Shown one piece after another: positions 7,509 through 28,807 of a DNA stretch of 64,000 bases; the first letter of the stretch is position 1; the number at the start of each line of letters is the position of its first letter. Source of the DNA: an uncultured Bacilli bacterium (GTDB lineage: Bacteria > Bacillota_I > Bacilli_A > RF39 > UBA660). Under the pieces are notes generated by a model. The model made no database searches and was not told the DNA's origin. It was given only the letters and a program-made list of their open reading frames with translations. Where the stretch lies: NCBI GenBank assembly GCA_944372545.1, contig CALVZO010000008.1, positions 7,352 to 71,351 on the forward strand, given 5' to 3'. A program made the translations under genes and the position numbers.

Positions 7509-7520
7509 AGACTACTCCTT

Positions 7521-7603
7521 AAAATAAAAAAGCACACACAAATAGGGAGTGACGTGGCTGCTGTCTTCCAACTCTGACCAAATTACACTATATTTGTTGT
7601 GCA
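7521..7603 (-). ncRNA. ffs: Small (4.5S-type) signal recognition particle RNA: a single hairpin with its U-run terminator
   Basis: The minus strand reads GCACAACAAAUAUAGUGUAAUUUGGUCAGAGUUGGAAGACAGCAGCCACGUCACUCCCUAUUUGUGUGUGC UUUUUUAUUUU. It contains the domain IV signature GGUCAG..GGAA tetraloop..AGCAGCC. The terminal arms pair, and a U-run follows. Confidence 0.75.
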
Positions 7604-7608
7604 AATTA

Positions 7609-7637
7609 ATAATAACACATTACTTAATTATTAGCAA
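7609..7637 (-). promoter_or_regulatory. Sigma-A type promoter for the SRP RNA (-35 TTGCTA, 17-nt spacer, -10 TATTAT)
   Basis: On the minus strand, TTGCTA (7637..7632) is followed by a 17-nt spacer and TATTAT (7614..7609), about 6-7 nt upstream of the first paired G of the RNA. The -35 directly abuts NBS-like palindrome copy 1. Confidence 0.5.
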
Positions 7638-7639
7638 AA

Positions 7640-7655
7640 TATTTCCCGGGAAATA
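7640..7655. promoter_or_regulatory. NBS-like palindrome copy 1: TATTTCCCGGGAAATA (exact Noc-binding-site 16-mer)
   Basis: Perfect 16-mer inside a 20-bp perfect palindrome (7638..7657). Confidence 0.8.
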
Positions 7656-7827
7656 TTCTGCAGTTAAATTGCTAAAACACTACCAATTTTATTAATTTGG
7701 TAATTATTCAGTTAAACAATTTATTTTAAAAATGTTTTAAGAATTAATATCAAATTAAAAACAATTGCAAAAATATGTATATTTTTAACACAAAATCTTT
7801 ATTTAAAAAGTTGTTTTTCAAAAAAAA

Positions 7828-7843
7828 TATTTCCCGGGAAATA
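7828..7843. promoter_or_regulatory. NBS-like palindrome copy 2: TATTTCCCGGGAAATA
   Basis: Perfect 16-mer inside a 30-bp perfect palindrome (7821..7850: A7-TATTTCCCGGGAAATA-T7). Confidence 0.8.
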
Positions 7844-7848
7844 TTTTT

Positions 7849-7876
7849 TTGCCAATTTTACAATTTTGACAATAAT
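7849..7876 (+). promoter_or_regulatory. Promoter-like spacing TTGCCA-N16-AATAAT, 6 bp downstream of NBS copy 2
   Basis: -35-like TTGCCA (7849..7854) and -10-like AATAAT (7871..7876). The same architecture recurs at 7973..8000 (TTGTCA-N16-AATAAT), 8688..8715 (TTACCA-N16-AATAAT) and, more weakly, 8860..8887. No ORF lies downstream. Confidence 0.3.
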
Positions 7877-7890
7877 CCGACTTGTTTTTT

Positions 7891-7912
7891 TACCAATTTT
7901 ATAAAATTGGTA
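7891..7912. repeat. Perfect 22-bp palindrome TACCAATTTTATAAAATTGGTA (second repeat family)
   Basis: Identical to 8730..8751. About a dozen imperfect relatives occur only inside the island, starting near 7681, 7851, 7975, 8016, 8046, 8141, 8690, 8762, 8862, 8894, 8925 and 9017. Confidence 0.8.
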
Positions 7913-7952
7913 CATTTTTCAAAAAATTAGAAGTCGCTATCACCCCAAAAAA

Positions 7953-7968
7953 TATTTCCCGGGAAATA
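7953..7968. promoter_or_regulatory. NBS-like palindrome copy 3: TATTTCCCGGGAAATA
   Basis: Perfect 16-mer inside a 28-bp perfect palindrome (7947..7974). Confidence 0.8.
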
Positions 7969-8106
7969 TTTTTTGTCAATTTGTTAATTTTGGTAATAAT
8001 CATAACTGCTTTTTGCTATTTTTATCAAATTGGTAGTTATATAATTCCAATTATATTAAAATGGTAATACTTTTGTATTAATTTAACAAACTTACATTGA
8101 TAAAAT

Positions 8107-8122
8107 TATTTCCCGGGAAATA
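8107..8122. promoter_or_regulatory. NBS-like palindrome copy 4: TATTTCCCGGGAAATA
   Basis: Perfect 16-mer inside a 28-bp perfect palindrome (8101..8128); the flanks differ from the other copies (TTATTT instead of ATATTT). Confidence 0.8.
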
Positions 8123-8284
8123 ATTTTATACTAAATTTTCTGAATTGGTAATATATAAAACTAATTTAATTATTATAAAACTTGTTTACTATAAATTTAT
8201 TTCTTGTCTACATAAAAAATTCAAAATAATTTTAAAAAATAGTTTTAATTCATTCAACTGTTTTTAGCATCGATGTTTAATTGA

Positions 8285-8300
8285 TGTTTCACGTGAAACA
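8285..8300. promoter_or_regulatory. parS: parS site 1: TGTTTCACGTGAAACA (perfect ParB/Spo0J centromere consensus)
   Basis: Exact match to the Firmicute parS consensus TGTTNCACGTGAAACA, embedded in a 34-bp perfect palindrome (8276..8309); intergenic. Confidence 0.85.
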
Positions 8301-8566
8301 TCAATTAAATGCAAAATATATAATGCTCTAATAATTACTCAAATTTATATATAATTGTATTAAATTTAGTTAAATTATTTATTTAATTATACCTTTGTTT
8401 TAAAAAGGGTTATTGGTTAGTATATTATTTTAATAAAAAATTGAATATATCTAATAATATTAAAAAAATTATATACCAAAATATGCTTTTATTTAATAAT
8501 TTTACATTTTTAATTAATATTATGTTTCAAAATGAAAATGCACGTTTAAATATTGAACATAGAATA

Positions 8567-8582
8567 TGTTTCACGTGAAACA
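8567..8582. promoter_or_regulatory. parS: parS site 2: TGTTTCACGTGAAACA
   Basis: Exact parS 16-mer inside a 26-bp perfect palindrome (8562..8587), 282 bp from site 1; intergenic. Confidence 0.85.
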
Positions 8583-8729
8583 TATTCGTTGTAATTAATT
8601 AAAAAATTATAATAACTGAATTGATTCTCATTTAAATATATTAAAAATAAATAATAAATGCTCTATATTTGAAATTTTGAAACAATTATTACCAATTTTG
8701 TAATTTTGGTAATAATTTGATTTGCTTTT

Positions 8730-8751
8730 TACCAATTTTATAAAATTGGTA
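8730..8751. repeat. Perfect 22-bp palindrome TACCAATTTTATAAAATTGGTA (second copy)
   Basis: Exact duplicate of 7891..7912; both are preceded by (C/G)TT(G)TTTTT. Confidence 0.8.
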
Positions 8752-8838
8752 ATTATACTTTGCCAAATTCTTGAAATTGACAAAATTTTTAAAAAATTTA
8801 AATTTTTTATATAAATTTACTACATAATCGTGATTAAA

Positions 8839-8854
8839 TATTTCCCGGGAAATA
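8839..8854. promoter_or_regulatory. NBS-like palindrome copy 5: TATTTCCCGGGAAATA
   Basis: Perfect 16-mer inside a 22-bp perfect palindrome (8836..8857). Confidence 0.8.
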
Positions 8855-8994
8855 TTTTTTTGCCAATTTGTTAATTTTGACTCAAATTTTTTTGCTAATT
8901 TTATTAAATTGGTTATTATATAATTCCAATAATGTTAAAATGGTAATATTTTGGTAATATTTTTATATATTAAACAAACTTACATTGATAAAAA

Positions 8995-9010
8995 TATTTC
9001 CCAGGAAATA
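8995..9010. promoter_or_regulatory. NBS-like palindrome copy 6, variant: TATTTCCCAGGAAATA (one central mismatch)
   Basis: 15/16 match (CCCAGG instead of CCCGGG); same A-run/T-run flanks as the perfect copies. Confidence 0.65.
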
Positions 9011-9114
9011 TTTTTTGCCAAATCTTTTAAATTGATTTATATAAAATAAATTAAATTATTATAATTTTGCATTACTGTAATTTTTTTCTTTTAAACATAA
9101 AAAAAAGTTCAAAA

Positions 9115-9130
9115 TATTTCCCGGGAAATA
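9115..9130. promoter_or_regulatory. NBS-like palindrome copy 7: TATTTCCCGGGAAATA; may also act as the gyrA terminator
   Basis: Perfect 16-mer inside a 32-bp perfect palindrome (9107..9138), 8 bp past the gyrA stop codon. Confidence 0.8.
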
Positions 9131-9145
9131 TTTTGAACTATATTC

Positions 9146-11641
9146 TTATTCTTTTTCTTCTGTTTTATCTACGATGCTAATTGTTGAAACGATTTGATTT
9201 TCTCTTAATGATATAAGTCTTAATCCTTGCGTAACTCGGCTTAAAGTTGAGATTTGATTAACTGGTAATTTAATAGTAATACCAGCATTTGTCATAATAA
9301 TAACATCTTTATCTTCTTCAACTATTTTTATTGCAACTAAGTTACCATTTTTTTCAGTTACTTTAAGTGCCAATACACCCTTGCTACCTCTTCTAGTTTG
9401 TCTAAATTCGCGAACTTTAGTTTGTTTTCCGTAACCCTTCTCAGTAACAAGTAACACAACGGATTCATCATTAACAACTTCAGCACAGATACAATTGCCG
9501 CCATCTAAATTAATTCCTTTAACTCCAGCAGCAGTTCTACCCATAATACGTACCTCAGATTCAATAAATTTGACTACTTTTCCTTTATCGCTACCTAATA
9601 ATATCATATTATTGCCATTTGTCTTTTTAACATCGATTAATTCATCATTATCATTTAATTTGATACAAATTTTTCCTGAATTGCGAATATTTTCAAATTC
9701 TTCTAGTTTAGTTCTCTTAATTACTCCTTTTTTTGTTGCGAAGAATAAATATTTTTGCTCTTCTTCTCTATCTATTTTTAATATCGAATTAATCTTTTCA
9801 TCTTTTTCAATTGATAATAAATTAATTATAGGTAAACCTTTTGACTGTCTACTATATTCAGGAATTTCATAGCCTTTAAGTCTATATACTTTACCTTTAT
9901 TGGTGAAGAACATAATATAATCATGAGTTGATAAGTTGATTAAATTTTCAACATTATCTTCATCATTAGTTGTAACACCTTTAATTCCTACACCACCACG
10001 ATTTTGAACTTTAAAAGTATCATTAGAAGTTCTCTTTATATAACCTTTTTGTGTTATCATTACCATTGAATCTTCTTCAGGAATTAATGATTCATTTTCG
10101 ATAAATTCAATGGCTGTCATATCGATTTTTGTTCTTCTTTCATCACTATATTTGTTTTTAATTTCGGTTAATTCTTTTTTAATTAAATCAAGAACTTTTT
10201 GTTCTGAAGCAAGAATTGCTCTTAATTCCTCAATTTCTTTTAATAACGCATTTAATTCTTCTTCAATTTTATCTCTTTCAAGTCCAGTTAATCTTCTTAA
10301 TTTTAATTCTAATATAGCATCAGTTTGAATTTCATCAAGACCAAAACGCGACATTAATTTTTCTTTAGCATCAGCATCATCTAAAGCATTTCTGATAATT
10401 TTTACAACTTCATCAATGTTATCTTGGGCTATTTTATAACCATTTAAAATGTGAACTCTTCTTTCGTCTTTGGCTAAATCAAATTTTGTTCTTCTAATAA
10501 TAACTTCTTTTTGATGGTCTATATATTTAGAAATAATTGCTTTTAAACTTAGTGTTCTTGGTGTTAACCCATCAAGCATTAAGAATATAATTCCATAACT
10601 TACTTGAAAAGAAGTGTGTTTATATAAATTATTTAAAACTACTTGCGGATTAGCATCTTTTTTAAGTGTTATAGTTATTTTAACACCATCTTTTAAATCT
10701 GTATGATAGTCAGAAATTCCATCAATAATTTTAGAGTGAACAAGTTCAGCAACTTTATTCTTTAGTTCCATTGTATTAACTTCATAAGGAACTTCAGTAA
10801 TTACAATGGCATTATGACCGTTAATTTCTTCGATTTCGGCTTTACTTCGAATAGTAATTGAGCCTCTTCCTGTTTCATATGCTTTTTTAATACCAGAATT
10901 ACCTAAAATAATACCACCAGTTGGAAAGTCTGGACCTTTTATATATTGCATTAATCCTAAAGTATCAATTTCTGAATTATCAATGTAAGCAATACAACCA
11001 TCAATTACTTCTCCTAGATTATGGGGAGGTATATTTGTAGCCATACCAACGGCAATTCCTTTTGAACCATTAACTAAAATATTTGGAAACCTAGAAGGAA
11101 GAACTTTTGGTTCTTTTTTTGTAACATCAAAGTTGTCGTCCATATCTACAGTATCTTTATTAATATCTCTTAATAATTCTAAAGAAATTTTTGCAAGTCT
11201 TGATTCAGTATAACGCATTGCTGCTGCGCCATCACCCTCGATATTACCGAAGTTTCCGTGACCATCAACCAGCATATATCTTTGATTAAAATCTTGAGCA
11301 AGTCTAACCATTGCTTCATAAATTGATGAGTCTCCATGTGGGTGATAATGCCCCATAACATACCCAACTGTAGTAGCACATTTTCTATGTGGTTTATCTG
11401 GAGTATAACCATTTTCATACATTGACCATAAAATACGACGATGTACTGGTTTTAAGCCATCTCGTAAATCAGGAAGAGCACGCGATGCAATAACACTCAT
11501 TGAATATTCCATAAAAGAAGTTTTAACTTCATCAACTATGTTATTGTGATCTAATCTATCTCTTTCATGAAAATAGCCACTGAAGTTAGAATTATTAACA
11601 TTTGTTTCATTTGTATTATTTAAATTTTCATTATTTTCCAT
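9146..11641 (-). CDS. gyrA: DNA gyrase subunit A
   Basis: 831 aa; RALPD.RDGLKPVHRR, active-site region AAMRYTE, C-terminal beta-pinwheel repeats. Confidence 0.97.
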   Translation of the reverse strand: MENNENLNNTNETNVNNSNFSGYFHERDRLDHNNIVDEVKTSFMEYSMSVIASRALPDLRDGLKPVHRRILWSMYENGYTPDKPHRKCATTVGYVMGHYHPHGDSSIYEAMVRLAQDFNQRYMLVDGHGNFGNIEGDGAAAMRYTESRLAKISLELLRDINKDTVDMDDNFDVTKKEPKVLPSRFPNILVNGSKGIAVGMATNIPPHNLGEVIDGCIAYIDNSEIDTLGLMQYIKGPDFPTGGIILGNSGIKKAYETGRGSITIRSKAEIEEINGHNAIVITEVPYEVNTMELKNKVAELVHSKIIDGISDYHTDLKDGVKITITLKKDANPQVVLNNLYKHTSFQVSYGIIFLMLDGLTPRTLSLKAIISKYIDHQKEVIIRRTKFDLAKDERRVHILNGYKIAQDNIDEVVKIIRNALDDADAKEKLMSRFGLDEIQTDAILELKLRRLTGLERDKIEEELNALLKEIEELRAILASEQKVLDLIKKELTEIKNKYSDERRTKIDMTAIEFIENESLIPEEDSMVMITQKGYIKRTSNDTFKVQNRGGVGIKGVTTNDEDNVENLINLSTHDYIMFFTNKGKVYRLKGYEIPEYSRQSKGLPIINLLSIEKDEKINSILKIDREEEQKYLFFATKKGVIKRTKLEEFENIRNSGKICIKLNDNDELIDVKKTNGNNMILLGSDKGKVVKFIESEVRIMGRTAAGVKGINLDGGNCICAEVVNDESVVLLVTEKGYGKQTKVREFRQTRRGSKGVLALKVTEKNGNLVAIKIVEEDKDVIIMTNAGITIKLPVNQISTLSRVTQGLRLISLRENQIVSTISIVDKTEEKE

Positions 11642-14764: not shown

Positions 14765-15217
14765 TTAAAGAAAATTTCTTTTTTTTCGATAATTTAAAAC
14801 CCCTTTTATTTTTATTGCATTAAATATTAAATTTTCAAAACTATTTAATGATATTAATGTACGAAAACTATACTTATTTAGACAATTTATTAATAAATAA
14901 TAATTTTTTTGTTCATAATTTAATACTTTATTAAAAATTAATAATAAACACTCATCTTTTCTTAAAGAATTTAGTTGCAATAAGATTATATTATTGTCAT
15001 CATCAATAATTATTGGTACTTTATACTTGATATTTAAGACATTTTGGGCAAATTTTTTTCGCCCTAAAAAAGTACTTCCATAATATTTACAATTATACTC
15101 CAATATATAATTTATATTTTTGTTAATAACTTCTATTTTATTAACATTATAAATTATTGTTTTATTTCCTTTTTTTAATAATCCAATTGTATCTTTAGTA
15201 ATTAAATATTTTTCCAT
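14765..15217 (-). CDS. ComK-family protein (competence transcription factor-like), short 150-aa form
   Basis: By my recollection of B. subtilis ComK, CKYYGSTFLGRKK matches CRFFGSSYAGRKA, KVPIIIDD matches KPPIMVDP, and SLNSFENL matches SYNSFENQ. GGAGGG RBS; own promoter-like TGgTATAGT; preceded by the dnaN terminator. Confidence 0.65.
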   Translation of the reverse strand: MEKYLITKDTIGLLKKGNKTIIYNVNKIEVINKNINYILEYNCKYYGSTFLGRKKFAQNVLNIKYKVPIIIDDDNNIILLQLNSLRKDECLLLIFNKVLNYEQKNYYLLINCLNKYSFRTLISLNSFENLIFNAIKIKGVLNYRKKRNFL

Positions 15218-15274
15218 AAACCCTCCAAATTAAATGCTACTATACCATTTTTGGGTTAAAAATTATGTCAAAAT

Positions 15275-15288
15275 ATTTCCCAGAAAAT
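15275..15288. promoter_or_regulatory. Degenerate NBS-like element ATTTCCCAGAAAAT (12/14)
   Basis: Same AAATATTTCCC left arm as the island copies; the right half is decayed. Lies between the dnaN terminator and the comK-like gene. Confidence 0.35.
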
Positions 15289-15295
15289 AATTTTT

Positions 15296-17958: not shown

Positions 17959-18038
17959 TCATAAATATCCCAAATTAATTGTAACTTAAAAGAATTTTTA
18001 TTACAACAATAAATTAGAAAAAAATTATTTCTACAATT

Positions 18039-18216
18039 TTTTCCACATAATTTTCTTCCATATTTCTCTATATTAAAATAATTTTTCCACATTTTCAACA
18101 AAAATATTAGTAACTTTCTAACATATTAATTTCTCTTTTTATTTTTTTAATGTTAAAAGTGTTGAAAACCTAATAGAAGGCTTATATATCAATGTTTTTA
18201 AAAATAATTTTCCACA
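18039..18216 (+). promoter_or_regulatory. oriC: oriC, cluster of DnaA boxes upstream of dnaA
   Basis: Three identical TTTTCCACA boxes (8/9 to TTATCCACA) at 18039..18047, 18083..18091 and 18208..18216, all in one orientation, plus weaker TGTTGAAAA-like elements near 18160. Confidence 0.7.
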
Positions 18217-18725
18217 AATTAATAAATATTATAATAAATTTATGTAATATAAATGTTAATAACTTATATTTTATATTTTTAATATCATTTTTATATTTTT
18301 GATATTCTTCGATATTTAAAACTTCACCTTATATTGATTTGATTATTGATAAATCTGTTTCTTTTATGACATTTTGTGCATTATTTTGGTTTTCTTGCAT
18401 AGAATATCTAGTAGATGTGTTAGAATTTACATTTTGGGTTGTTTGTGATACATTATTGGTAGTTAAAGACCCGTTGGCGCCGTTATTAACGGAAGAGCCA
18501 CTAATTACGGGTCTTTTTCTTTGCTCTAATTTACCAACATTATATATTGTATTAACATTTCCATTTTTTTGTGGCAAAATTCATATATCTAGTCTATATA
18601 TCTTATTCTATATATAATGTTTAATTAAAATAAAAAATTTGAAGAAAAAAACATTATATATTAATGAAATATATTTTAAAAAAAAACTAGGTTAATTCTT
18701 TTAATTCTGTCAATAGTTTTTGAAA

Positions 18726-19089
18726 ATGTCTCAAAAAAAGTTAAACATTAGCGAGAAAATTTATTCCAATTTCCTTGCTGACAAATTAATTTTATTTGTA
18801 TTGATTTTAAGTCGTTATCTTCGGAGATGGCCTTATCTAATGTACTAACTGGGTTTCTTGATCAATTACCATGTACAAAAGCTGATTTGCCTTTCTCCTT
18901 ATATTTAACAATAATATGATCAATTTGTCTTCTTGATAGACCGAGCTTTTTACTAGCTCTGTTTTTGTTTCCATTATGATCTACTAAATCTTTGATCACT
19001 TCATATTTCAATTGTTCATTCATTCTTAATTCAACCTTTCTCATATTCATCACCAAGTGATGTATTCTACAGTAATTGAGACATAATCA
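18726..19089 (-). mobile_element. Internally deleted IS remnant (~364 bp) bounded by 9-bp inverted repeats
   Basis: ATGTCTCAA (18726..18734) and TTGAGACAT (19081..19089) are reverse complements and bracket the transposase fragment. Confidence 0.45.
18748..19056 (-). pseudogene. Truncated transposase: N-terminal HTH only, with an in-frame stop and then a short tail
   Basis: The 64-aa ORF ..NEQLKYEVIKDLVDHNGNKNRASKKLGLSRRQIDHIIVKYKEKGKSAFVHGN* resembles the N-terminal HTH of rve-type (ISNCY-like) transposases of Firmicutes. Reading through the TGA gives 37 more codons and then ends. No catalytic domain is present. Confidence 0.5.
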
Positions 19090-19222
19090 AATACTAACAC
19101 TTAAGACATTATCATATTCTAATCATAAGATATCAAAAATTATTAATAAAAAATATTGCAAAAATCTCTTACATGCTTTAAAATTAAATTATATGTGAAA
19201 TACATGATAAGGAGTGGTTATA

Positions 19223-19486
19223 ATGGAAATTACAAAAGTACGTGTTCACAAAATTGAAAGAGAAGGCTCAAGACTAAAAGGTTATGCAACTGTAACACTT
19301 GATGACTGTTTTGTAGTCACAAATATTAGAATTATTGAAGGAGAAAACAGATTATTTTGCGCAATGCCAAGTCGTAAAGTAAATGATAATAAATTTGAAG
19401 ATATTGTTCACCCAACTAATGTTGAAACAAGAGAAATGTTTGAAACAAAGATTTTAGAAGAATACAATAATCCAACAGAGGAATAG
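19223..19486 (+). CDS. spoVG: Septation/sporulation regulator SpoVG
   Basis: MEITKVRVHKIEREGSRLKGYATVTLDDCFVV..I.IIEG; AAGGAG RBS upstream of the ATG at 19223 (the track start at 19214 is a GTG extension). Confidence 0.93.
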   Translation: MEITKVRVHKIEREGSRLKGYATVTLDDCFVVTNIRIIEGENRLFCAMPSRKVNDNKFEDIVHPTNVETREMFETKILEEYNNPTEE

Positions 19487-19535
19487 TTTAGTACTATTTC
19501 TTTTTTATTGGCATATTATTTTAAGGGAGGCATTT

Positions 19536-19829
19536 ATGGAACAAACAATTGATTTAAATCCAAGTTATGGCAGTCATGAAATTAAAATAATTGACCGAAG
19601 TCTTATAAGTTTATCAGGAATTAAAAAGATAGATAGTTTTGATAATGAAGAATTTTTAATGGAATCAAATATGGGAACTATTTTGTTAAAGGGTGAAAAA
19701 CTAGAAATAATAAAATTAGATACTCATGAAGGTAATGTAAAAATTAAGGGAAAATTAAATAGTTTTGTTTATTTAGAAAATGTTAAAAAAAATAAAGAGG
19801 AAAGTATTCTCTCTAAGTTATTTAAGTAA
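19536..19829 (+). CDS. yabP: Sporulation protein YabP
   Basis: 97 aa; the pattern LSGIKKIDSFDNEEFL..T..G.L.IKGE.L.I..L is typical of YabP; GGGAGG RBS. Confidence 0.85.
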   Translation: MEQTIDLNPSYGSHEIKIIDRSLISLSGIKKIDSFDNEEFLMESNMGTILLKGEKLEIIKLDTHEGNVKIKGKLNSFVYLENVKKNKEESILSKLFK

Positions 19830-20116
19830 TGACTAGTAATTTACAATTAATTTCATTTTTAGTTTCTTTTATATTTGGTTTTTTCTTTTATTTTCTTACT
19901 AATTTTAATTTTGAAATAATAAAAGATTTAAAAGTATATTTAAAACATATTATTACTTTTATTTATGTAATAGATATGGTTATAATATATGTCATAATAT
20001 TTTATCATTTAAATAAAGGATATTTTCATATTTATTTTATATTAATGGTGTTCATTGGGTTTATAATTGGTTATATTTTTTATAAAAAGGTGGTAAGTAA
20101 AATAAATGTAAAATGA
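19829..20116 (+). CDS. yabQ: Spore cortex biosynthesis membrane protein YabQ
   Basis: 95-aa polytopic membrane protein translationally coupled to yabP (TAATG); conserved yabP-yabQ-divIC order. Confidence 0.75.
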   Translation: MTSNLQLISFLVSFIFGFFFYFLTNFNFEIIKDLKVYLKHIITFIYVIDMVIIYVIIFYHLNKGYFHIYFILMVFIGFIIGYIFYKKVVSKINVK

Positions 20117-20179
20117 ATATTTAAATCTTGAAGTAACTAGTTTAGTGTGCTAGTATCAAAATTGATAAGGTTGAAAATA

Positions 20180-20476
20180 ATGGCAAATAAAAAGAAAACT
20201 AGTAAAAAAGAGAAAAAAAGATTATTTATTATTTCAACAGCAATATTACTATTGCTTTTCCTTTTAGTGTCTAGTGTTTATAATGACTGGAAACAAATTT
20301 TAAAAAACAGAAAAGATGAAGTAGAACTTACAAAGCAATATGAATTACTTTTAGAAGATGAAGTTAAACTTAATGCCGAAATTACTAAATTGCAAGATGA
20401 TGAATATTTAGCAAGATATGCAAAAGAAAAATTTATGTTATCTAGTGAAGGAGATACAATTATTAAAACTAATTAA
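20180..20476 (+). CDS. divIC: Septum formation initiator, DivIC/FtsB family
   Basis: Basic N-terminus, one TM segment, then a coiled coil (LTKQYELLLEDEVKLNAEITKLQDDEY). I prefer the ATG at 20180 (MANKKK). Confidence 0.8.
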   Translation: MANKKKTSKKEKKRLFIISTAILLLLFLLVSSVYNDWKQILKNRKDEVELTKQYELLLEDEVKLNAEITKLQDDEYLARYAKEKFMLSSEGDTIIKTN

Positions 20477-20498
20477 GACTTGAAAAAAAGTCTTTTTT
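20475..20498. terminator. Bidirectional terminator between convergent divIC and clpP
   Basis: AAGACT-TGAAAAAA-AGTCTT hairpin with a T-run on one side and an A-run inside the loop. Confidence 0.55.
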
Positions 20499-21078
20499 AA
20501 GTGATTATTTCATCAATTAAGCCATATTGAAGTGCATCTTCTGGAGTCATAAAATTATCTCTTTCAGTATCTCTTTCAATAGTTTTTAAATCTTTATTAC
20601 ACACACTTGCTAAAATTTTATTTAATTTATCTTTAATTTTTAAAATTCTTTCCGCAGCAATTTTTATATCAGTGGCTTGTCCACTAGTACCTCCAAGGGG
20701 TTGATGTATCATTATTTCACTATTTGGAAGACTACATCTTTTTCCTTTTGTTCCATTTGCTAATAAAAATGCTCCCATACTAGCAGATAAGCCAATACAA
20801 ATAGTTTTAACATCACTTTTAATATAATTCATCGTATCATATATAGCCATTCCACTTGTAATAGACCCACCGGGAGAATTTATATATAGATATATGTCTT
20901 CATGATTAAGACTATCTAAATAAAGTAATTCTGAAACAACAATACTTGCCATATTATCATTTATTTCTCCACTTATAAAAACAACACGATCATTTAAAAG
21001 CCTAGAATATAGGTCATAAGCATATTCTTTTTTATTACTTTTTTCAATAACAGTTGGTATTATATTCAATTTAGTCAC
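20497..21078 (-). CDS. clpP: ATP-dependent Clp protease proteolytic subunit
   Basis: 193 aa; Ser-His-Asp triad context ([23 protein letters not shown].); GTG start. Confidence 0.95.
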
Positions 21079-21166
21079 CTATAATTATAATATAAAAAAT
21101 AGTAAGTTTTTATTCAAAAAAAAGGCAAGATATGTTAAAATTGTTATAGTAAAGGGTTGATTAGTA

Positions 21167-22813
21167 GTGGAAAAAATATTAATTACTTTAAATACCGGAG
21201 AAAAAAAAGAATTTCCTTTGAATACAACTTACTATGAAATTAGTAAGGGGTTTAATTTGGAAAAAAATATTTTAGGTGTAAAAATTAATAACGAAATACT
21301 ATCTTTAAATGACAAGGCTACTAATGATGCTTTAGTTACCTTTGTTGATCTTAATGATTTATCAGGTAGTAAAATTTATAAGAGTGGATTAGAATTTATT
21401 TTTGAAGTGGCCTTAAAAAAGACTTTTAAAGATTTAGATATCACTTATCAACATAGTGTTCCCAAAGGTTTTTTAGGTGAGGTTGAAGGTAATCATGTAA
21501 TTACCCAAGAAGATTTATTAAAAATTAAAAATGAAATGGCTAAATTAGTAAGTGAAGATATACCTTTTCGTAAATTAAATATTAAGAAAAAAGAAGCCAT
21601 TGATTTTTATAAAAAAATGGGTGAGTTAGAAAAGGCAGAAAATGTTCGAAATATTTCTGATAAAGTCGTAACTTTATATGAATTACTAGGTTTTTATAAT
21701 TATTATTATTCTGAAATGCCTTATAGTACTGGTTCAATTACTAAATATGAAATAGTTTATTTAGGGAGAAATAGATTAATATTTGTAATACCAAGTAATA
21801 GAACAAAGGGAATACTTCCAGAATATGTTCATTATGATAATATTATTAATTCATTTTTAGTTGGGAAAAATTGGTTAGAAACTTTAAAAATGCAATATAT
21901 TAACTCAATTAATAATACAATTGGTAATGGAAAAATTAAAGATTTTATTAAATCATGTGAACTTGTTTTTAATATAAATATTTCTAAAGTTGCAGATGAT
22001 GTAACAAATAACAGGAATATTAAATTTATTTTAATCGCAGGGCCTTCAAGCAGTGGAAAAACTACCACTACTAAAAGATTATCTTCTTATTTAATGGCTA
22101 AAGGGTATGACCCGGTTAAAATATCAATTGATGATTATTTCTTAGATAGAGTAGATACTCCAAAAGATGAATTTGGTAATTATGATTTTGAGTGTTTAAC
22201 GGCGATAGATTTAGATTTATTCAATAGAGATTTACAAAAGTTACTTAATAATGAAGAAATAAATATGCCAACTTATAATTTTATATCAGGTAAAAAAGAG
22301 TATAATGATAACTACATAAAGTTAAAGGAAAATAGCATAATACTTATTGAAGGATTACATGCTTTAAATGATGATTTATTACCAGGAATTGATAAAAAAT
22401 ATAAATATAAAGTGTATTTAAGTCCTTTTATACCTTTAAATATTGATCGGCATAATTATATATCTACAATTGATTTAAGATTAATAAGAAGAATAATAAG
22501 AGATAATAGAACTAGAGGTTATGATATAAATAAAACAATTCATAATTGGCAAAAAGTAAGAGATGGAGAAGAGAGAAATATTTTTCCATATATTCATCAA
22601 GCAGATACAATTATTAATACTGCTCTTCCTTATGAAGTTGGAGTAGAAAAAGTATATGTTGAGCCATTACTTAGGTCAATCAATGTTGAAAGTATCTATT
22701 ATGAAGAAGCAAAAAGATTATTAAATTTTTTAAAAACATTTTTTCCAATACCGGGAGAATATGTAAATAAAGATTCAATTTTAAGAGAATTTATAGGAGG
22801 AAACGATGATTAG
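21167..22813 (+). CDS. Uridine kinase-family P-loop protein with an N-terminal TGS/ThrRS-like extension
   Basis: 548 aa; Walker A GPSSSGKTTT about 290 aa in; the C-terminal half resembles PRK/uridine kinase; GTG start. Confidence 0.65.
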   Translation: MEKILITLNTGEKKEFPLNTTYYEISKGFNLEKNILGVKINNEILSLNDKATNDALVTFVDLNDLSGSKIYKSGLEFIFEVALKKTFKDLDITYQHSVPKGFLGEVEGNHVITQEDLLKIKNEMAKLVSEDIPFRKLNIKKKEAIDFYKKMGELEKAENVRNISDKVVTLYELLGFYNYYYSEMPYSTGSITKYEIVYLGRNRLIFVIPSNRTKGILPEYVHYDNIINSFLVGKNWLETLKMQYINSINNTIGNGKIKDFIKSCELVFNINISKVADDVTNNRNIKFILIAGPSSSGKTTTTKRLSSYLMAKGYDPVKISIDDYFLDRVDTPKDEFGNYDFECLTAIDLDLFNRDLQKLLNNEEINMPTYNFISGKKEYNDNYIKLKENSIILIEGLHALNDDLLPGIDKKYKYKVYLSPFIPLNIDRHNYISTIDLRLIRRIIRDNRTRGYDINKTIHNWQKVRDGEERNIFPYIHQADTIINTALPYEVGVEKVYVEPLLRSINVESIYYEEAKRLLNFLKTFFPIPGEYVNKDSILREFIGGNDD

Positions 22814-23810
22814 AGTTGCAATAAATGGTTTTGGTAGAATTGGCAGAATTGCTTTTAAAGAAATAATTACAGGAACAGATTTTGATATTGTCGCAATTAA
22901 TGATTTATCTAATGCTGAAGAATTAGCCCATCTAGTTAAATATGACACTATTTATAGAACATTTCATGAAGACGCTATAAAATATGATGGTGATGAAATA
23001 GTTATTGCAGATAAAAAAAGAATTAAAGTGTTTGCTGAAAAAGATCCTTTGAATTTACCATGGAAAGAATTAAATGTTGATTTAGTTCTTGAGTGTACAG
23101 GGGTATTTAAAGATTATGATAAGGCTTATAAACATATTGAAGCCGGTGCTAAAAAAGTTTTATTATCATGTCCTGGTAAGGGAGATATGAAAACTATAGT
23201 ATTTGGAGTTAATGATAATTTATTAGATGGTACTGAAAAAATAGTATCGGCATCTAGTTGTACAACAAATTGTCTTGCCCCAATTTTAAAAGTCTTAAAT
23301 GATAATTTAGGAATTGAAAAAGGATTTATGACTACTGTCCATGCAATAACTAATGACCAAGTAACATTAGATATTGCTCATAGTAAAGGTATATATGCAA
23401 GAAGGGGGCGCTCTGCTAGTCAAAATATTATACCTACATCTACTGGGGCAGCATCATCAATTGGTTTAGTTATACCAGAGTTAAAAGGAAAAATGGACGG
23501 AATTTCTTATCGCGTTCCAGTTCCAGATGGTTCTCTTTTAGATATTAATTTAGAATTTAAGAAAGATACTACAAAAGAGGAAGTTAATAATATTATAAAA
23601 AATAATCAAAGTGATGCCTTAAGATATACAGAAGATCCTATTGTATCTAGTGATATTATTGGTAAAAGAATTGGTGGCTTAGTTGATGGCTTACTTACAA
23701 ATGTAGTTGAAGTTAATAATAAAAAGTTATTTAAAGTTGTAGCATGGTATGATAATGAACTAGGTTATACTAGTCAAATGTTAAGAGTAGCAAAAAGGTT
23801 GTTTAAATAA
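22806..23810 (+). CDS. gap: Glyceraldehyde-3-phosphate dehydrogenase, type I
   Basis: INGFGRIGR Rossmann start, catalytic SCTTNCLAP, WYDNE near the C-terminus. Confidence 0.96.
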   Translation: MIRVAINGFGRIGRIAFKEIITGTDFDIVAINDLSNAEELAHLVKYDTIYRTFHEDAIKYDGDEIVIADKKRIKVFAEKDPLNLPWKELNVDLVLECTGVFKDYDKAYKHIEAGAKKVLLSCPGKGDMKTIVFGVNDNLLDGTEKIVSASSCTTNCLAPILKVLNDNLGIEKGFMTTVHAITNDQVTLDIAHSKGIYARRGRSASQNIIPTSTGAASSIGLVIPELKGKMDGISYRVPVPDGSLLDINLEFKKDTTKEEVNNIIKNNQSDALRYTEDPIVSSDIIGKRIGGLVDGLLTNVVEVNNKKLFKVVAWYDNELGYTSQMLRVAKRLFK

Positions 23811-23812
23811 TA

Positions 23813-24967
23813 ATGAAATATTTAAGTAAAGAAAATATTACAAATAAAACGGTTTTATTAAGATGTGATTTTAACGTACCAGTGGAAAATAACTTAATTA
23901 TTGATGATAGTAAGATTCAAAAAAGTTTAAAAACCATTAAATATTTATTAGATAATAATAATAGAGTAATTACATTAAGTCATTTTGGAAGAGTAAAAGA
24001 AGAAGTTGATAAAAAAAATAATAGTCTTCATAAAGTATACTTATATTTAAAAAAATATTTAGATATAGTATTTATTGAAAATAATCTTAATGTAGAATTT
24101 TATTTAAAAACTTCTAAAAGTAATTGCTTTTTATTAGAAAATACAAGATTTACTGATATTCCAAGAAAAAGAGAAAGTGCAAATGATTTAGAATTAGCCA
24201 AATATTGGTCAAGTTTTGGTGATGTATTTGTCATTGATGCTTTTGCCTCTTTACATAGATTACACTCTTCTGTTGCAGGTATTTCTAATTATTTACCAAC
24301 ATATTATGGATTTCTTGTTGAAGAAGAAATTACTAATTTAAATGTATTACAAAATGCTTCATCACCTTTTATAGTAATTATGGGTGGTAAAAAGATAGAT
24401 GATAAAATAAATATTATTAATACATTAGTAAAAAAATGTGATTATTTAATTTTAACAGGAGGTATCCTTAATACTTTTTTAAAAGTAATGGGGAAAAATG
24501 TTGGTAAAAGTCTAGTGAGTAATAATGAAGAAATTTTAAGTAATGTTAAAAATATTATAAAAGAATATAGTGATAAAATATTATATACTGATAATTTTAC
24601 CGTATTAAATAATGGGAAGAATTTAAAAAGAAGAATTAATGAAGTAGAAGATGAAGATATTATTTATGATAATGTAGTAAATTCTGAAGATTATTTAAGA
24701 AAAGCCAAAGTTGTATTTTTTAATGGTACTTGCGGCAAAGTAGAAGAAGATGCATATAGTATTGGAACAAGACATTTACTTGATACATTAAGTAAAATAG
24801 ATGCAAAAGTAATAGTTGGTGGTGGAGATACTGTTGGGTATGTTAATAAAATTAATTACGCAGATAAATTTTATTACTTATCTAGTGGTGGTGGTGCAAC
24901 TCTTGAATATGTTGCAACTGGTAGTCTAAAAGCAATAGATTATATAGAAGATGTTAAGAACAATTGA
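23813..24967 (+). CDS. pgk: Phosphoglycerate kinase
   Basis: RCDFNVP N-terminal motif, SHFGR, C-terminal GGGDT..STGGGA-like (SSGGGATLEY). Confidence 0.93.
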   Translation: MKYLSKENITNKTVLLRCDFNVPVENNLIIDDSKIQKSLKTIKYLLDNNNRVITLSHFGRVKEEVDKKNNSLHKVYLYLKKYLDIVFIENNLNVEFYLKTSKSNCFLLENTRFTDIPRKRESANDLELAKYWSSFGDVFVIDAFASLHRLHSSVAGISNYLPTYYGFLVEEEITNLNVLQNASSPFIVIMGGKKIDDKINIINTLVKKCDYLILTGGILNTFLKVMGKNVGKSLVSNNEEILSNVKNIIKEYSDKILYTDNFTVLNNGKNLKRRINEVEDEDIIYDNVVNSEDYLRKAKVVFFNGTCGKVEEDAYSIGTRHLLDTLSKIDAKVIVGGGDTVGYVNKINYADKFYYLSSGGGATLEYVATGSLKAIDYIEDVKNN

Positions 24968-24991
24968 GTTTTTAACATTTTTTTGTACTTA

Positions 24992-24998
24992 TTCGACA
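24992..24998 (-). promoter_or_regulatory. Spo0A box (TGTCGAA on the minus strand) upstream of spo0A
   Basis: TTCGACA lies 116 bp upstream of the spo0A ATG, next to a TTGACA hexamer at 25013..25018. Confidence 0.4.
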
Positions 24999-25113
24999 CA
25001 TTTTTACATATATTGACAATAGTAGACAAAACTTCCTATGGCTTTTTGTCAAATATTATTTTATAATTGTATTTGCAAGCAGTAAAAAATTTAACGAAAA
25101 AAGGAGAAAAATC

Positions 25114-25869
25114 ATGAATTCGAGTATTAAAGTTTTAGTTATTGAAAATAACGAAGCAATAACTAAAGACATGGAGAAGTACTTTAGCAGTCATGAAGTA
25201 ATTAAAGTAGTAGCTTGTAAAAAAGATGGGGAAGAAGGTTTAAATTACATTATCAATAATGTAAGTAATATTGATGTTATTGTAATGGATTTATTAATTC
25301 CGAAACTAGATGGTTTGTTTATCTTAAGTGAATTAAAAAGAAGAAATATTAAGAAAAATGTTATTATAACTACTAGTTTTAAAGATGATGCCGTTATGGA
25401 CGAGGCTAATAAATATGGAGTAACATATTATATGATTAAGCCAGTTAATTTTATTAGTTTAGAAAAAAGGATAATGAGTATTAATATAAATAATACAAAA
25501 AATAAAACATTTAACCAAGAAGTTATACTTACTGATTTATTACACTCATTAGGTATACCTTCACATATAAGAGGTTACCAATATATTAGAGATGGCATAA
25601 TTCTTATGTATAATAGTCCAAATCAAATTGCCTATATTACTAAAGAAATATATCCAGAAATTGCGCTTAAATATTATACTACTGCATCTAGGGTAGAAAG
25701 AGCAATAAGACACGCTATAGAAATTAGTTGGAATCGGGGAGACATGGATTTAATGGACGAAATATTTGGGAATAGTCTCAATTTAAATCGTGATAAACCA
25801 ACTAATGCCGAATATTTATCAACTCTTGCCGATAGACTAAGAGTTAAATCTAATTTAGTTACAAATTAA
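25114..25869 (+). CDS. spo0A: Sporulation master regulator Spo0A
   Basis: Receiver domain (D59, T86/87, K109) plus the diagnostic Spo0A C-terminal domain: GIPSHIRGYQYIRDGI, TKEIYPEIA, TASRVERAIRHAIE..W.RG, KPTNAEYLSTLAD. Confidence 0.95.
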   Translation: MNSSIKVLVIENNEAITKDMEKYFSSHEVIKVVACKKDGEEGLNYIINNVSNIDVIVMDLLIPKLDGLFILSELKRRNIKKNVIITTSFKDDAVMDEANKYGVTYYMIKPVNFISLEKRIMSININNTKNKTFNQEVILTDLLHSLGIPSHIRGYQYIRDGIILMYNSPNQIAYITKEIYPEIALKYYTTASRVERAIRHAIEISWNRGDMDLMDEIFGNSLNLNRDKPTNAEYLSTLADRLRVKSNLVTN

Positions 25870-25870
25870 G

Positions 25871-25897
25871 AATACAAGTAAAATTGTATTTTTTTTT
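25871..25897 (+). terminator. Rho-independent terminator after spo0A
   Basis: AATACAA-GTAAAA-TTGTATT followed by a T-run. Confidence 0.65.
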
Positions 25898-25929
25898 CGA
25901 TTATGGTATATTTATCTAAAGGTGAAAGT

Positions 25930-27423
25930 ATGAAAAAAATACTAACTATTATATTAGATGGGTTTGGTATAAGAGAAGAAGTAACTGGTAATGCGATAAA
26001 AGAAGCCGGTATGGAAACTTTTAATTCCCTATGGGAAGAGTATCCTCATGCATTACTAGAAGCGTCTGGTGAAAGCGTTGGTTTAAAAGAAGGTCAATTT
26101 GGTAATAGTGAAACAGGGCATCAAACAATTGGGGCTGGCCGAGTTATAAAACAAAATGAAATTTTAGTTGATGATTTTTTAAAAAGTGATGTTTTAGAAA
26201 ATGAACAATTTCAAAATATTTTAAGTAGAAAAGATAAAGATATTCATTTAATGGGGTTATGTAGTAATGGCAATGTTCATGCTGGAATTGATGATTTTAT
26301 AAAGTTATATGAACTTCTTGTTAAAAATGGTGCCGAAAAAATCCATTTTCATTTAATAACTGATGGAAGAGATACTGGTGTTTTTGAAGGAATTAATTTT
26401 GTAAGACAAATTGAAGAAGTAATTAATACCTATAAAGTTGGCGATATTGCCTCAATTTGTGGAAGATATTATGCCATGGATAGAGATAAAAATTATGATA
26501 GAACTAAAATCTATTATGAATTAGTTACTAAAGGAGAAGGATATTCTGCTACTAATTATGAAGCCATTATTCAAAAAATGTATGAAAAAAATATAACTGA
26601 TGAATTTTTAAAACCAATTATCTTAAATAAAAAAGGTTTAATAAAAAATGGTGATACGCTGATATGGCTAAATTATCGCTCAGATCGTTCAAAACAAATA
26701 TTAAGTGCTTTTAAAAATAGTTTATTTGATGGTTTTTATACTTATGATATGAGTAATTTAGAAATATTTACTTTTTTAGAAATAGATAGTGATATACCTA
26801 CTAATATTTTAATTAAAAAAGAAGAAATTACAAATCCTTTAGGTTTATATTTATCAAAGTTAGGAATAACCCAAGCAAGAATTGCAGAAACAGAAAAATT
26901 TCCTCATGTTACATACTTTTTTGATGGTGGCTATTTAGGAAAAATTCCTAAATGTAATGCCTTTCATATACCATCGCCTGATGTTGCTACATATGATTTA
27001 AAACCAGAAATGAGTGTAGTTGGAGTCACAAAAAAATGCATTGAGTGTATGAATCAAGATTATGATTTTATCTTAGTAAATTTTGCTAATCCAGATATGG
27101 TAGGTCATACTGGTAATTTTGATGCAACAGTTAAGGCTTGTATGGCAATAGATTTATGTTTAAAGAAAATATTAGAGCAAGCCGAAGAAAATTTTTATAA
27201 AGTCATTATTTTAGCAGACCATGGTAATGCTGATACTATGATAGATGAAAAAGGAAATATTGTCACAACTCATAGTTTAGCAAAAGTACCATTTATAATT
27301 AAAGACAAAAATATTGAGTTAAAAGAAGTTGGTGATTTAACGATGGTAGCACCGACAATACTAGAATATATGGACATTTCTCTTCCTGAAGAAATGAAAG
27401 ATACTGATATTTTATTAAAGTAG
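25930..27423 (+). CDS. gpmI: 2,3-bisphosphoglycerate-independent phosphoglycerate mutase
   Basis: MKKILTIILDGFG, GNSE.GH, ADHGNA motifs. I prefer the ATG at 25930 with an AAAGGTGA RBS. Confidence 0.93.
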   Translation: MKKILTIILDGFGIREEVTGNAIKEAGMETFNSLWEEYPHALLEASGESVGLKEGQFGNSETGHQTIGAGRVIKQNEILVDDFLKSDVLENEQFQNILSRKDKDIHLMGLCSNGNVHAGIDDFIKLYELLVKNGAEKIHFHLITDGRDTGVFEGINFVRQIEEVINTYKVGDIASICGRYYAMDRDKNYDRTKIYYELVTKGEGYSATNYEAIIQKMYEKNITDEFLKPIILNKKGLIKNGDTLIWLNYRSDRSKQILSAFKNSLFDGFYTYDMSNLEIFTFLEIDSDIPTNILIKKEEITNPLGLYLSKLGITQARIAETEKFPHVTYFFDGGYLGKIPKCNAFHIPSPDVATYDLKPEMSVVGVTKKCIECMNQDYDFILVNFANPDMVGHTGNFDATVKACMAIDLCLKKILEQAEENFYKVIILADHGNADTMIDEKGNIVTTHSLAKVPFIIKDKNIELKEVGDLTMVAPTILEYMDISLPEEMKDTDILLK

Positions 27424-27475
27424 TTTTAATTTAAAATTTTTTATGATATATTAATGGTAGAAAGAAGTGTGAGTT

Positions 27476-28807
27476 ATGAATAATAATGAAAATGAAGAAA
27501 AAATAGGGATTAAATCTAAATTTAAAATACCTTTAATAGTTATTGGTGTTCTTTTAATAGTAGTGTTAACTATAGGGATTTATAAATTTTTCCAAGTTAA
27601 AGATGCAAGAAGTCTTTATACAAGTATTCTTAACGATTTTGAAAGTAAGTTAGTTAGTAATCTTAATATTAAAGATGATGCTAAAATATATAGTATTTCT
27701 GGTAATTTATTAATAAATATTGATTCAAATGATAGTGAAATCAATAGTATTGGTGAAATTTTAAATAATTTAAAAATAAATTATGAAGTACAAATGGATT
27801 TAAATAAGAAATTGGAAAATGTATTACTAAGTACAACTTATGATAATAAAAACTTATTAGATTTAGGACTATATTTAAAGGAAGATACAATGTATGTTGA
27901 TTTAGGTGATTTATATAATAAGAATATTAAATATAGCGATGAAGAATTAAAAGAAGTTTGGGAAGTAATAGATACCAATGATTATGAAACAATTATTAAA
28001 GAGTTTAATAAAATTATTCAAGATAATTTAAAAGAGGAATATTTTAAAGAGGAAAGTGGTAAGACAAAAGTAAATGGTAATGATATAAATACTAAGAGTT
28101 ACATTTTAGAAATAAAAGGAACAGAAGTATATAATTTTGAAAATAACATTATAAATTCAATTGAGGAAAACGATAATTTAATTGTTCTTTTAAGTAAAAC
28201 TGGTGGTATGACAGAAAGTGATGTAGTAACATACTTAGATAACGCTAGAGAAGAATTAGTAGAAAATGAAGATGCCATAATTCGATTAGAAATTCATGCT
28301 AAAGGATTTATGGAAGAAACAGCCAAAGTTTTAGTTAACATAGATAACGAAGTAATTGAGTTCCACCAAAATAAAAAAGATACTTATAACATTATATATA
28401 ATGATGAAGAAATTGGTTCATTAGTAAATAAGAAAAATAATAAAGAAGTAAATATTAATCAAGATGGTAATACATTTACTTATGAATATGATGGAAAGTT
28501 ATGTACAATAGAATTTAAAGATAATAATGCAAGAGTGTATTTAAATATTGAAAATAATGAAAAAATTAATTTTATGTTAGGTGTAAATGAAGATGATACA
28601 AGTATAGAAATTGTGTTAGATGGAGTTATAAGTGATGCTATTAGTGAAGTATCAAGCAAAGATAATGAAGAATATGTTGATTATAACAATTTAACTGAAG
28701 AAGATATGGAAACTATTTATAATAATTTATATAATAATGAGGCTTTACTTTCTTTAATTGAAGATTTATCACAAACTTCATTATTGCAAAATTTAATGTT
28801 ATTTTAG
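27476..28807 (+). CDS. Hypothetical membrane-anchored protein (one N-terminal TM, then an acidic Asn/Glu/Ile-rich ectodomain)
   Basis: Long ORF with codon usage like its neighbours, a TM segment (FKIPLIVIGVLLIVVLTIGIY) and a strong terminator directly after the stop. I recognise no family. Confidence 0.6.
   Translation: MNNNENEEKIGIKSKFKIPLIVIGVLLIVVLTIGIYKFFQVKDARSLYTSILNDFESKLVSNLNIKDDAKIYSISGNLLINIDSNDSEINSIGEILNNLKINYEVQMDLNKKLENVLLSTTYDNKNLLDLGLYLKEDTMYVDLGDLYNKNIKYSDEELKEVWEVIDTNDYETIIKEFNKIIQDNLKEEYFKEESGKTKVNGNDINTKSYILEIKGTEVYNFENNIINSIEENDNLIVLLSKTGGMTESDVVTYLDNAREELVENEDAIIRLEIHAKGFMEETAKVLVNIDNEVIEFHQNKKDTYNIIYNDEEIGSLVNKKNNKEVNINQDGNTFTYEYDGKLCTIEFKDNNARVYLNIENNEKINFMLGVNEDDTSIEIVLDGVISDAISEVSSKDNEEYVDYNNLTEEDMETIYNNLYNNEALLSLIEDLSQTSLLQNLMLF

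Follow-up and report, generated by a model that had tools for sequence, protein, structure and literature searches.

The replication-origin region of an uncultured Bacilli bacterium (assembly GCA_944372545.1, contig CALVZO010000008.1) was analysed over 64,000 nucleotides, a 64-kb stretch here called the window, with an overall guanine-cytosine (GC) content of 26.7%. On its minus strand, dnaA, dnaN, a ComK-like gene, recF, gyrB and gyrA are followed by an intergenic island and then by ffs, tadA, dnaX, ybaB and recR. The sign of the GC skew switches at ~18-19 kb, immediately upstream of dnaA, and the island lies beside the replication origin (oriC), 8.8-10.3 kb from the dnaA start codon. It measures 1532 bp, has a GC content of 18%, contains no gene and only three open reading frames (ORFs) of 51-61 amino acids, and is bordered by gyrA (9146-11641, minus strand) and the signal recognition particle (SRP) RNA gene ffs (7518-7613, minus strand; Rfam 49.8 bits). 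Two kinds of palindromic 16-mer are packed into it, namely parS, the loading site of the partition protein ParB, and the Noc-binding site (NBS) of the ParB paralogue Noc, and the island is interpreted below as a probable composite centromere.

The NBS 16-mer, TATTTCCCGGGAAATA, occurs perfectly six times in the island and once, at 8995, with a single central mismatch that makes it read TATTTCCCAGGAAATA (Table 1). Sites with at most two mismatches number eight in the 64 kb, against 0.05 expected from dinucleotide-preserving shuffles, and the sole one outside the island is a decayed copy in the dnaN-comK spacer. CCCGGG is restricted to the six perfect copies, every one of which is centred in a longer perfect palindrome (20-34 bp). 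The parS 16-mer, TGTTTCACGTGAAACA, is present in two exact copies and has no further match in the window even at two mismatches or fewer; both agree with the consensus TGTTNCACGTGAAACA near oriC and lie ~9.4-9.7 kb from the dnaA start codon, flanked by four NBS on one side and three on the other. As the island holds every parS of the window, it would represent the parS centromere. In each half-site, positions 1 and 6 distinguish the published NBS from parS (PMC7383237). A preliminary description of this DNA, made from the letters and predicted reading frames, had recognized the 16-mer as the Noc-binding site with two differences from parS per half-site and had reported the six perfect copies and the mismatched one, their division into four left and three right of the parS pair, the absence of CCCGGG elsewhere, a single decayed relative and the lack of a credible ORF. 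All of these points agree with the pattern search, the ORF content and the literature; it had also made every perfect copy the core of a longer palindrome, which is correct, and its size range of 20-32 bp had to be widened.

Table 1. Sites and other features of the window; positions count from its first nucleotide.
Feature	Position	Strand	Basis or remark
Predicted composite parS/NBS centromere island, between ffs and gyrA	7614-9145	none	Sites, borders; position kept in relatives
NBS-type site 1, perfect	7640-7655	none	2 bp from -35 hexamer (7632-7637) of predicted ffs promoter
NBS-type site 2, perfect, 30-bp palindrome	7828-7843	none	Pattern search
NBS-type site 3, perfect, 30-bp palindrome	7953-7968	none	Pattern search
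NBS-type site 4, perfect	8107-8122	none	One mismatch in same-species contig L084
parS site 1, perfect	8285-8300	none	Core of 34-bp palindrome (8276-8309)
parS site 2, perfect	8567-8582	none	Core of 26-bp palindrome (8562-8587)
NBS-type site 5, perfect	8839-8854	none	Pattern search
NBS-type site 6, one central mismatch	8995-9010	none	Perfect in same-species contig L084
NBS-type site 7, perfect	9115-9130	none	16 bp past gyrA stop codon
Hairpin + U8 built on NBS-type site 7	9098-9139	-	RNA fold; probable gyrA intrinsic terminator
Third palindrome copies	7681-7707, 7891-7917, 8014-8040, 8045-8071, 8690-8716, 8730-8756, 8893-8919	none	Within span 7681-8919
Decayed single NBS, two mismatches, dnaN-comK spacer	15274-15289	none	Equivalent perfect in L020, L022, L032
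oriC region	17959-19213	none	Sign change of GC skew; variant DnaA boxes upstream of dnaA
parA, Soj-type ATPase, directly after rplQ	42973-43758	+	ParA-type ATPase match
parB, predicted canonical ParB, R-L-K-S, ParA-interaction-type N-terminus	43748-44629	+	Only ParB-family gene in window

Relatives were collected by a GyrA-based scan with one genome per species, which gave 80 loci (L numbers) from metagenome-assembled genomes of uncultured gut 'Bacilli'. Their GyrA is 71-78% identical to that of the window and their hosts include rabbit, human, goat, sheep and deer; the NCBI labels of these genomes range from Bacilli to Tenericutes, and 'Candidatus Scybalousia' resolves to Bacteroidales and is uninformative. 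Arrays of parS and/or NBS were found immediately 3' of gyrA in nearly all 80 loci. When counting was restricted to the 64 loci whose sequence extends 3 kb or more beyond gyrA, parS was present in 62 and accompanied by NBS in 49, with at least three NBS in 20 and at least four in 9. The 3 kb after gyrA hold 307 parS and 143 NBS, compared with 0 parS and 42 NBS in the remaining 1.3 Mb, all of it origin-proximal DNA; NBS are thus ~20-fold enriched in the post-gyrA islands, yet also occur as single copies elsewhere. A search of the islands for perfect palindromes returned NBS, parS and the parS variant TGTTCCACGTGGAACA as the only families. The same-species contig L084 (99.7% identical) carries the same nine sites, with the copy at 8995 perfect and the one at 8107 mismatched, indicating that single copies drift while the array persists. 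On the strength of its sites and position the island is thus assigned as the parS centromere of the clade.

The dispersed NBS of the relatives are not confined to intergenic DNA. Among 59 perfect copies tabulated outside the islands, 33 lie within long ORFs and 26 are intergenic, the latter including, unfiltered, six island copies from the same-species contig. Recurrent intragenic copies were found in dnaX, in recF and in a gene of ~285 amino acids ~7 kb downstream of gyrA. The copy in dnaX, +1.8 to +2.9 kb after gyrA, is seen in L005, L007, L009, L017, L027, L028, L034, L046, L049, L058, L066, L068, L075 and L077, and is absent from the dnaX of the window. Across the clade the NBS consensus widens to AAAW-16mer-WTTT, intragenic copies included, and the 16-mer is invariant between species despite diverged intergenic DNA, with no compensatory changes. 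Among the findings that would speak against a Noc-type array, the preliminary description had named loss of the array in close relatives and a generic repeat at gene ends; instead, the array is conserved, and the placement of dispersed copies within coding regions indicates that the NBS is no generic gene-end repeat. Palindromy reaches 1-4 bp past both parS and NBS across the clade, for which protein contacts, cruciform formation or the mode of site duplication could be responsible.

The two motifs form discrete classes. Sites matching their shared backbone were sorted by the two discriminating bases per half-site, and the resulting 324 sites comprised 160 pure NBS and 158 pure parS, no half-site was G..C, and A..A half-sites turned up in only two sites. 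Hybrid sites should be acceptable to a reader of relaxed specificity, and their near absence therefore points to two strict readers, one for each class.

One of these readers would be the ParB of the window, which has the Pfam domains ParB_N and HTH_ParB. Among solved structures it matches Spo0J of B. subtilis best (6sdk, 191 bits) and Noc less well (7nfu, 157 bits). It passes the NCBIfam parB model and scores 236 bits on the Noc model, under the 315-bit cut-off. At the specificity positions 173, 179, 184 and 201 (Caulobacter numbering), ParB has R-T-A-G and Noc Q-K-K-R (PMC7383237). Alignment of the window protein to the solved structure gave R-L-K-S, and among 120 ParB orthologues of the clade R173 is invariant (78 RLKS, 39 RLNS and 3 RLRS), so the window protein is classified, by sequence, as a canonical parS-type ParB. 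No parS was found inside parB in the window, and no second ParB-family gene in the 64 kb or in the 80 related gyrA loci.

A candidate for the second reader was found on other contigs of the clade. Metagenome contigs were scanned with a codon-level pattern for QSxIANKLRLLKL in AT-rich codons, and all 35 matches were Noc-type genes. One of them, on a contig of 25% GC (L088), ends the order mnmE-mnmG-rsmG-noc, and the MnmE of this contig shares 72% identity with its counterparts in L080 and L062, both of the clade, a value that falls in the range found among clade members themselves. The same order, with the gene directly downstream of rsmG (gidB), is found in L088, L122, L125-L130 and L131. A search with the L088 product returned a family of 120 proteins, and Q173 and R201 are present in all 114 readable motifs (QKNR 80, QKKR 13, other Q-x-x-R 21). 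Contigs that encode the family member P0201 read recF-comK-dnaN-dnaA, oriC and then rpmH-rnpA-yidC-jag-mnmE-mnmG-rsmG-noc, and align collinearly (79% nucleotide identity) with the clade loci L073, L043, L056, L035 and L052. A single contig of 43.6 kb (L131) carries a Noc-type gene (389 amino acids, Q-K-S-R), oriC, gyrA and then an island with seven perfect NBS and two perfect parS. Among solved structures, the protein of this contig is closest to Noc (7nfu, 191 bits), with Spo0J lower at 151-161 bits. The motifs PNRFQPR, GERRYKA and ENLQR are present in the Noc-type proteins of the clade; five family members reach 259-291 bits on the NCBIfam Noc model TIGR04285, below its cut-off of 315, and NCBI names the members only as ParB/RepB/Spo0J family proteins. 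A ParB/Noc-like protein behind the NBS, as considered in the preliminary description, thus exists in the clade with Noc-type specificity residues.

The Noc-type proteins of the clade are short at their N-terminus. Among the 114 members starting with methionine, 111 have 14-19 residues before PNRFQPR and three have up to 23, compared with 37-47 in Noc of the Bacillus/Staphylococcus type. In L125 the ATG start is preceded, 7 codons upstream, by an in-frame stop, and the alignment to Geobacillus Noc opens at Noc residue 23. The N-terminus is therefore ~20-30 residues shorter than in the Bacillus/Staphylococcus protein, indicating that the membrane-targeting amphipathic helix is missing. This helix is the membrane-binding part of Noc, and nucleoid occlusion is impaired in its absence (PMC8429893). 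The second paralogue with a Noc-type helix that the preliminary description had suggested looking for was accordingly found in part: relatives encode a Q173/R201 paralogue, it lacks the helix, and no such gene is present in the window.

Ahead of their Noc-like C-terminal domain, the clade's Noc-type proteins have long low-complexity linkers. In P0121-P0240, L088 and L109 these are repetitive and rich in N, Q, P and E, and many of the proteins are annotated 'partial' where contigs end, a sign that the linker repeats may break assemblies. In several contigs, among them L122 (4222-5433) and L125 (11191-12387), the gene immediately downstream of the Noc-type gene encodes a Band_7_1 (SPFH-type) protein of ~400 amino acids, which could be a partner for the helix-less protein. 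Noc-like genes of a Clostridium type, with Q-K-K-R and short N-termini without the Bacillus-type helix, were seen in L090, L096-L100, L102, L106, L108, L112, L113, L115, L117, L119 and L120. Where flanking sequence could be read, most of them precede parA-parB; their loci have parS and no NBS, and they indicate that the short N-terminus is not unique to the clade.

ParB is a CTP (cytidine triphosphate)-dependent clamp that loads at parS, slides outward and forms the partition complex used by ParA and SMC. Noc belongs to the same family of CTP clamps, loads at the NBS 16-mer and then leaves it as a sliding clamp (PMC8429893). We favour, at a probability of roughly 0.7, the reading that the island is a composite centromere whose parS sites serve ParB and whose NBS serve the helix-less Noc-type paralogue, so that two predicted CTP clamps are loaded there. 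The window ParB would load at the two parS 16-mers and slide outward to build the partition complex for ParA and SMC. The seven NBS-type 16-mers would most likely be loading sites for a Noc-type paralogue (Q-K-x-R) such as the one that relatives encode beside rsmG, across oriC from the island. Since NBS and parS are interleaved over 1.5 kb, with a spacing of only 27 bp in some relatives, the nucleoprotein complexes of both proteins would have to abut or overlap. The array would most likely serve to gather the Noc-type clamp at the centromere; dimers bound at the edge NBS would restrict the sliding of ParB clamps, and ParB at parS would restrict the Noc-type clamps in turn. The NBS copy nearest gyrA would in addition terminate gyrA transcription. 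A membrane tether, another role that has been proposed for the array, is less likely because the clade's Noc-type protein appears to lack the membrane-targeting helix.

Several points weigh against this reading. The clade paralogue lacks the helix that classical Noc requires for function. No Noc-type gene was found in the 64-kb window, nor in the leftward extension provided by the same-species contig L084. To the right of oriC (18000-28800), the window reads spoVG-yabP-yabQ-divIC-clpP-gap-pgk-spo0A and its relatives (L125, L131 and L042) read rpmH-rnpA-yidC-jag-mnmE-mnmG-rsmG-noc; because of this difference the paralogue is only presumed for the genome of the window, and the arrangement points to an origin-adjacent rearrangement with the rpmH-to-noc block placed elsewhere in that genome. 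About one quarter of the related islands carry parS without NBS, indicating that NBS are dispensable for centromere function. Finally, the window ParB itself has S201 and K184, residues linked to dual specificity in mutational scanning.

The order of sites within the islands bears on what the NBS would do there. In 55 mixed islands, with label shuffling as the expectation, the gyrA-proximal site is an NBS in 38 (21.6 expected) and both terminal sites are NBS in 21 (7.1 expected), figures whose significance is overstated, also to the detriment of the favoured reading, since the shuffles treat related species as independent. Neighbouring NBS and parS are separated by a median of 68 bp (mode 27), compared with 140 bp between neighbouring parS, and L042 repeats a 117-bp unit, containing a single parS and a single NBS, five times in tandem. 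The bracketing of parS by NBS lends indirect support to the roadblock idea. Taken as the primary role, Noc-type dimers on NBS would form roadblocks that confine ParB-CTP to the island and keep it off gyrA and ffs; besides the terminal positions of NBS, the recurrent NBS-parS pairs at 27 bp are in keeping with this, and DNA-bound proteins have been reported to be able to block ParB sliding. Many islands, however, interleave both site types (L042, L044 and L081) or carry NBS at just one of their ends, and Noc departs from NBS as a sliding clamp (PMC8429893). ParB can reportedly bypass roadblocks through dimer-dimer recruitment (PMC9242446), and the single dispersed NBS distant from any parS would call for another explanation. 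A barrier as the primary role is thus judged unlikely. Similarly tentative is a joint proposal in which the two clamps insulate each other, with ParB confined to the ~1-kb island, and the helix-less protein represents an early stage of Noc; at such a stage the DNA specificity would already have switched, membrane binding would be yet to be acquired and NBS would still be clustered among parS.

A second alternative dispenses with the paralogue: a relaxed clade ParB (R-L-K/N-S) would load at both parS and NBS, making the island a nine-site ParB centromere. It was treated as a serious rival because S201 of the window ParB resembles the dual-specificity variants obtained by mutational scanning, which mostly have T or S at 201 and for which K at 179 or 184 is permissive (PMC7383237). 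S201 is present in 120/120 ParB orthologues and K184 in 78/120, and the 64-kb window has no other ParB-family gene. S at 201 is, however, also compatible with parS-specific variants (PMC7383237), and 39/120 orthologues have N184 and thus no permissive lysine at 179 or 184. The near absence of hybrid half-sites among the 324 sites is not what a relaxed reader would produce, parS is confined to the islands and NBS also stand singly elsewhere, and the clade has a Q173/R201 paralogue that shares a contig with an island of seven NBS and two parS. Once the half-sites had been counted and the paralogue had come to light, dual-specificity ParB was given up as the main explanation, and it is now considered very improbable.

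Read on the sense strand of gyrA, the NBS at 9115 is the centre of a hairpin that has a 15-bp stem and runs into U8 (-18.8 kcal/mol, z -5.8); according to this fold it probably doubles as the gyrA transcription terminator. The internal NBS copies of the island fold weakly (about -9 kcal/mol, z about -2). The preliminary description had argued against a purely terminator role, which holds for the internal copies and was too strong for the one at 9115. That the palindromes in general are intrinsic terminators or hairpins resembling repetitive extragenic palindromic elements rather than protein sites, as the 9115 hairpin and the clade-wide AAAW/WTTT flanks might suggest, is scarcely credible and was ruled out as a general explanation, given the weak folds of the internal copies, seven copies with nothing there to terminate, the invariance of the 16-mer in otherwise diverged intergenic DNA without compensatory changes, the 33 of 59 copies outside the relatives' islands that lie in ORFs, and the identity of the sequence with the experimentally defined NBS (PMC7383237).

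A third palindrome family, TACCAATTTTATAAAATTGGTA and variants, overlooked by the preliminary description, has ~7 copies in the island and sits within its duplicated units of 110-150 bp. It occurs in the window species (window and L084) and was not found in the related loci checked (L004-L086). As a separate functional element, this palindrome (CCAATTTTATAAAATTGG) was rejected, being unconserved outside the species and probably part of the duplicated repeat unit. No DnaA box was found in the island of the window, and DnaA boxes are only 1.8-fold enriched in islands across the clade. Where NBS and parS are paired 26-28 bp apart, the linker of 10-12 bp often reads as a DnaA box, TTATNCACA or TTTTCCACA, and NBS-DnaA box-parS triads are thus formed in L038, L039, L049, L058 and L066.

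Next to the island, a promoter is predicted for ffs (region 7609-7655) with the -35 hexamer TTGCTA and an extended -10 element; occupancy of the adjacent NBS 1 could influence SRP RNA transcription. The ComK-family gene (14765-15217, minus strand) between dnaN and recF has the same placement in the clade contigs L125 and L131, and appears to serve as a synteny hallmark of the lineage. Sporulation genes of the window include spo0A, spoVG, yabP and gerQ. A 336-amino-acid ORF (47476-48486, plus strand) between ychF and a PIG-L-family gene has no match in Pfam or NCBIfam.

ParB and Noc, two sliding clamps gated by CTP, are the textbook case of duplicated genes whose products came to differ in DNA specificity, and work on them has so far dealt with origin-proximal clusters of parS and with NBS scattered round the chromosome. 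The clade provides a natural system with both loading sites packed together, at times 27 bp apart and amplified as a 117-bp unit, and it can thereby reveal whether one clamp blocks, tolerates or helps the other. In the partner protein the DNA specificity of Noc would occur without the membrane helix, which separates the two defining properties of Noc and raises the questions of its role without membrane binding and of an ancestral state versus secondary loss. Neither the proteins nor the island would require a culture of the organism for study, since E. coli or in vitro assays could serve.

No published description of a dense NBS array around parS, or of an NBS/parS composite, was found in open-access papers and preprints, in line with the statement in the preliminary description that a dense origin-proximal array was undescribed. 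The RacA-ram system of B. subtilis sporulation and the RicO-ricS system of S. aureus are similar in that the sites of a second DNA-binding protein are concentrated near the origin beside the ParB system, and the clade organisms carry sporulation genes. Their protein families and motifs are unrelated, their sites span hundreds of kilobases rather than 1.5 kb, and no membrane- or pole-binding module was identified in the Noc-type protein of the clade. Chromosomal ParABS systems share with the present locus consensus parS within ~10 kb of oriC, the presence of parA and parB, and R173 in ParB. They differ from it in that here all parS lie in one intergenic post-gyrA island, none within parB, and predicted sites of another ParB-family protein lie in the same cluster. 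The closest likeness is to Noc and NBS of B. subtilis and S. aureus. The 16-bp site TATTTCCCGGGAAATA is identical, the clade protein is a ParB paralogue with Q173, K179, R201 and CTP-binding motifs whose gene lies beside rsmG, and single dispersed sites occur, some of them within genes. In contrast to classical Noc, the clade protein lacks the amphipathic helix for membrane binding and nucleoid occlusion and falls below the NCBIfam Noc cut-off, and its gene is not adjacent to parAB. In the model species NBS are scattered (PMC8429893; PMC5540599), at 41 loci in S. aureus (PMC5540599), in agreement with the preliminary description, which had called them singly dispersed, whereas in the present clade up to seven sites stand within 1.5 kb, interleaved with parS.

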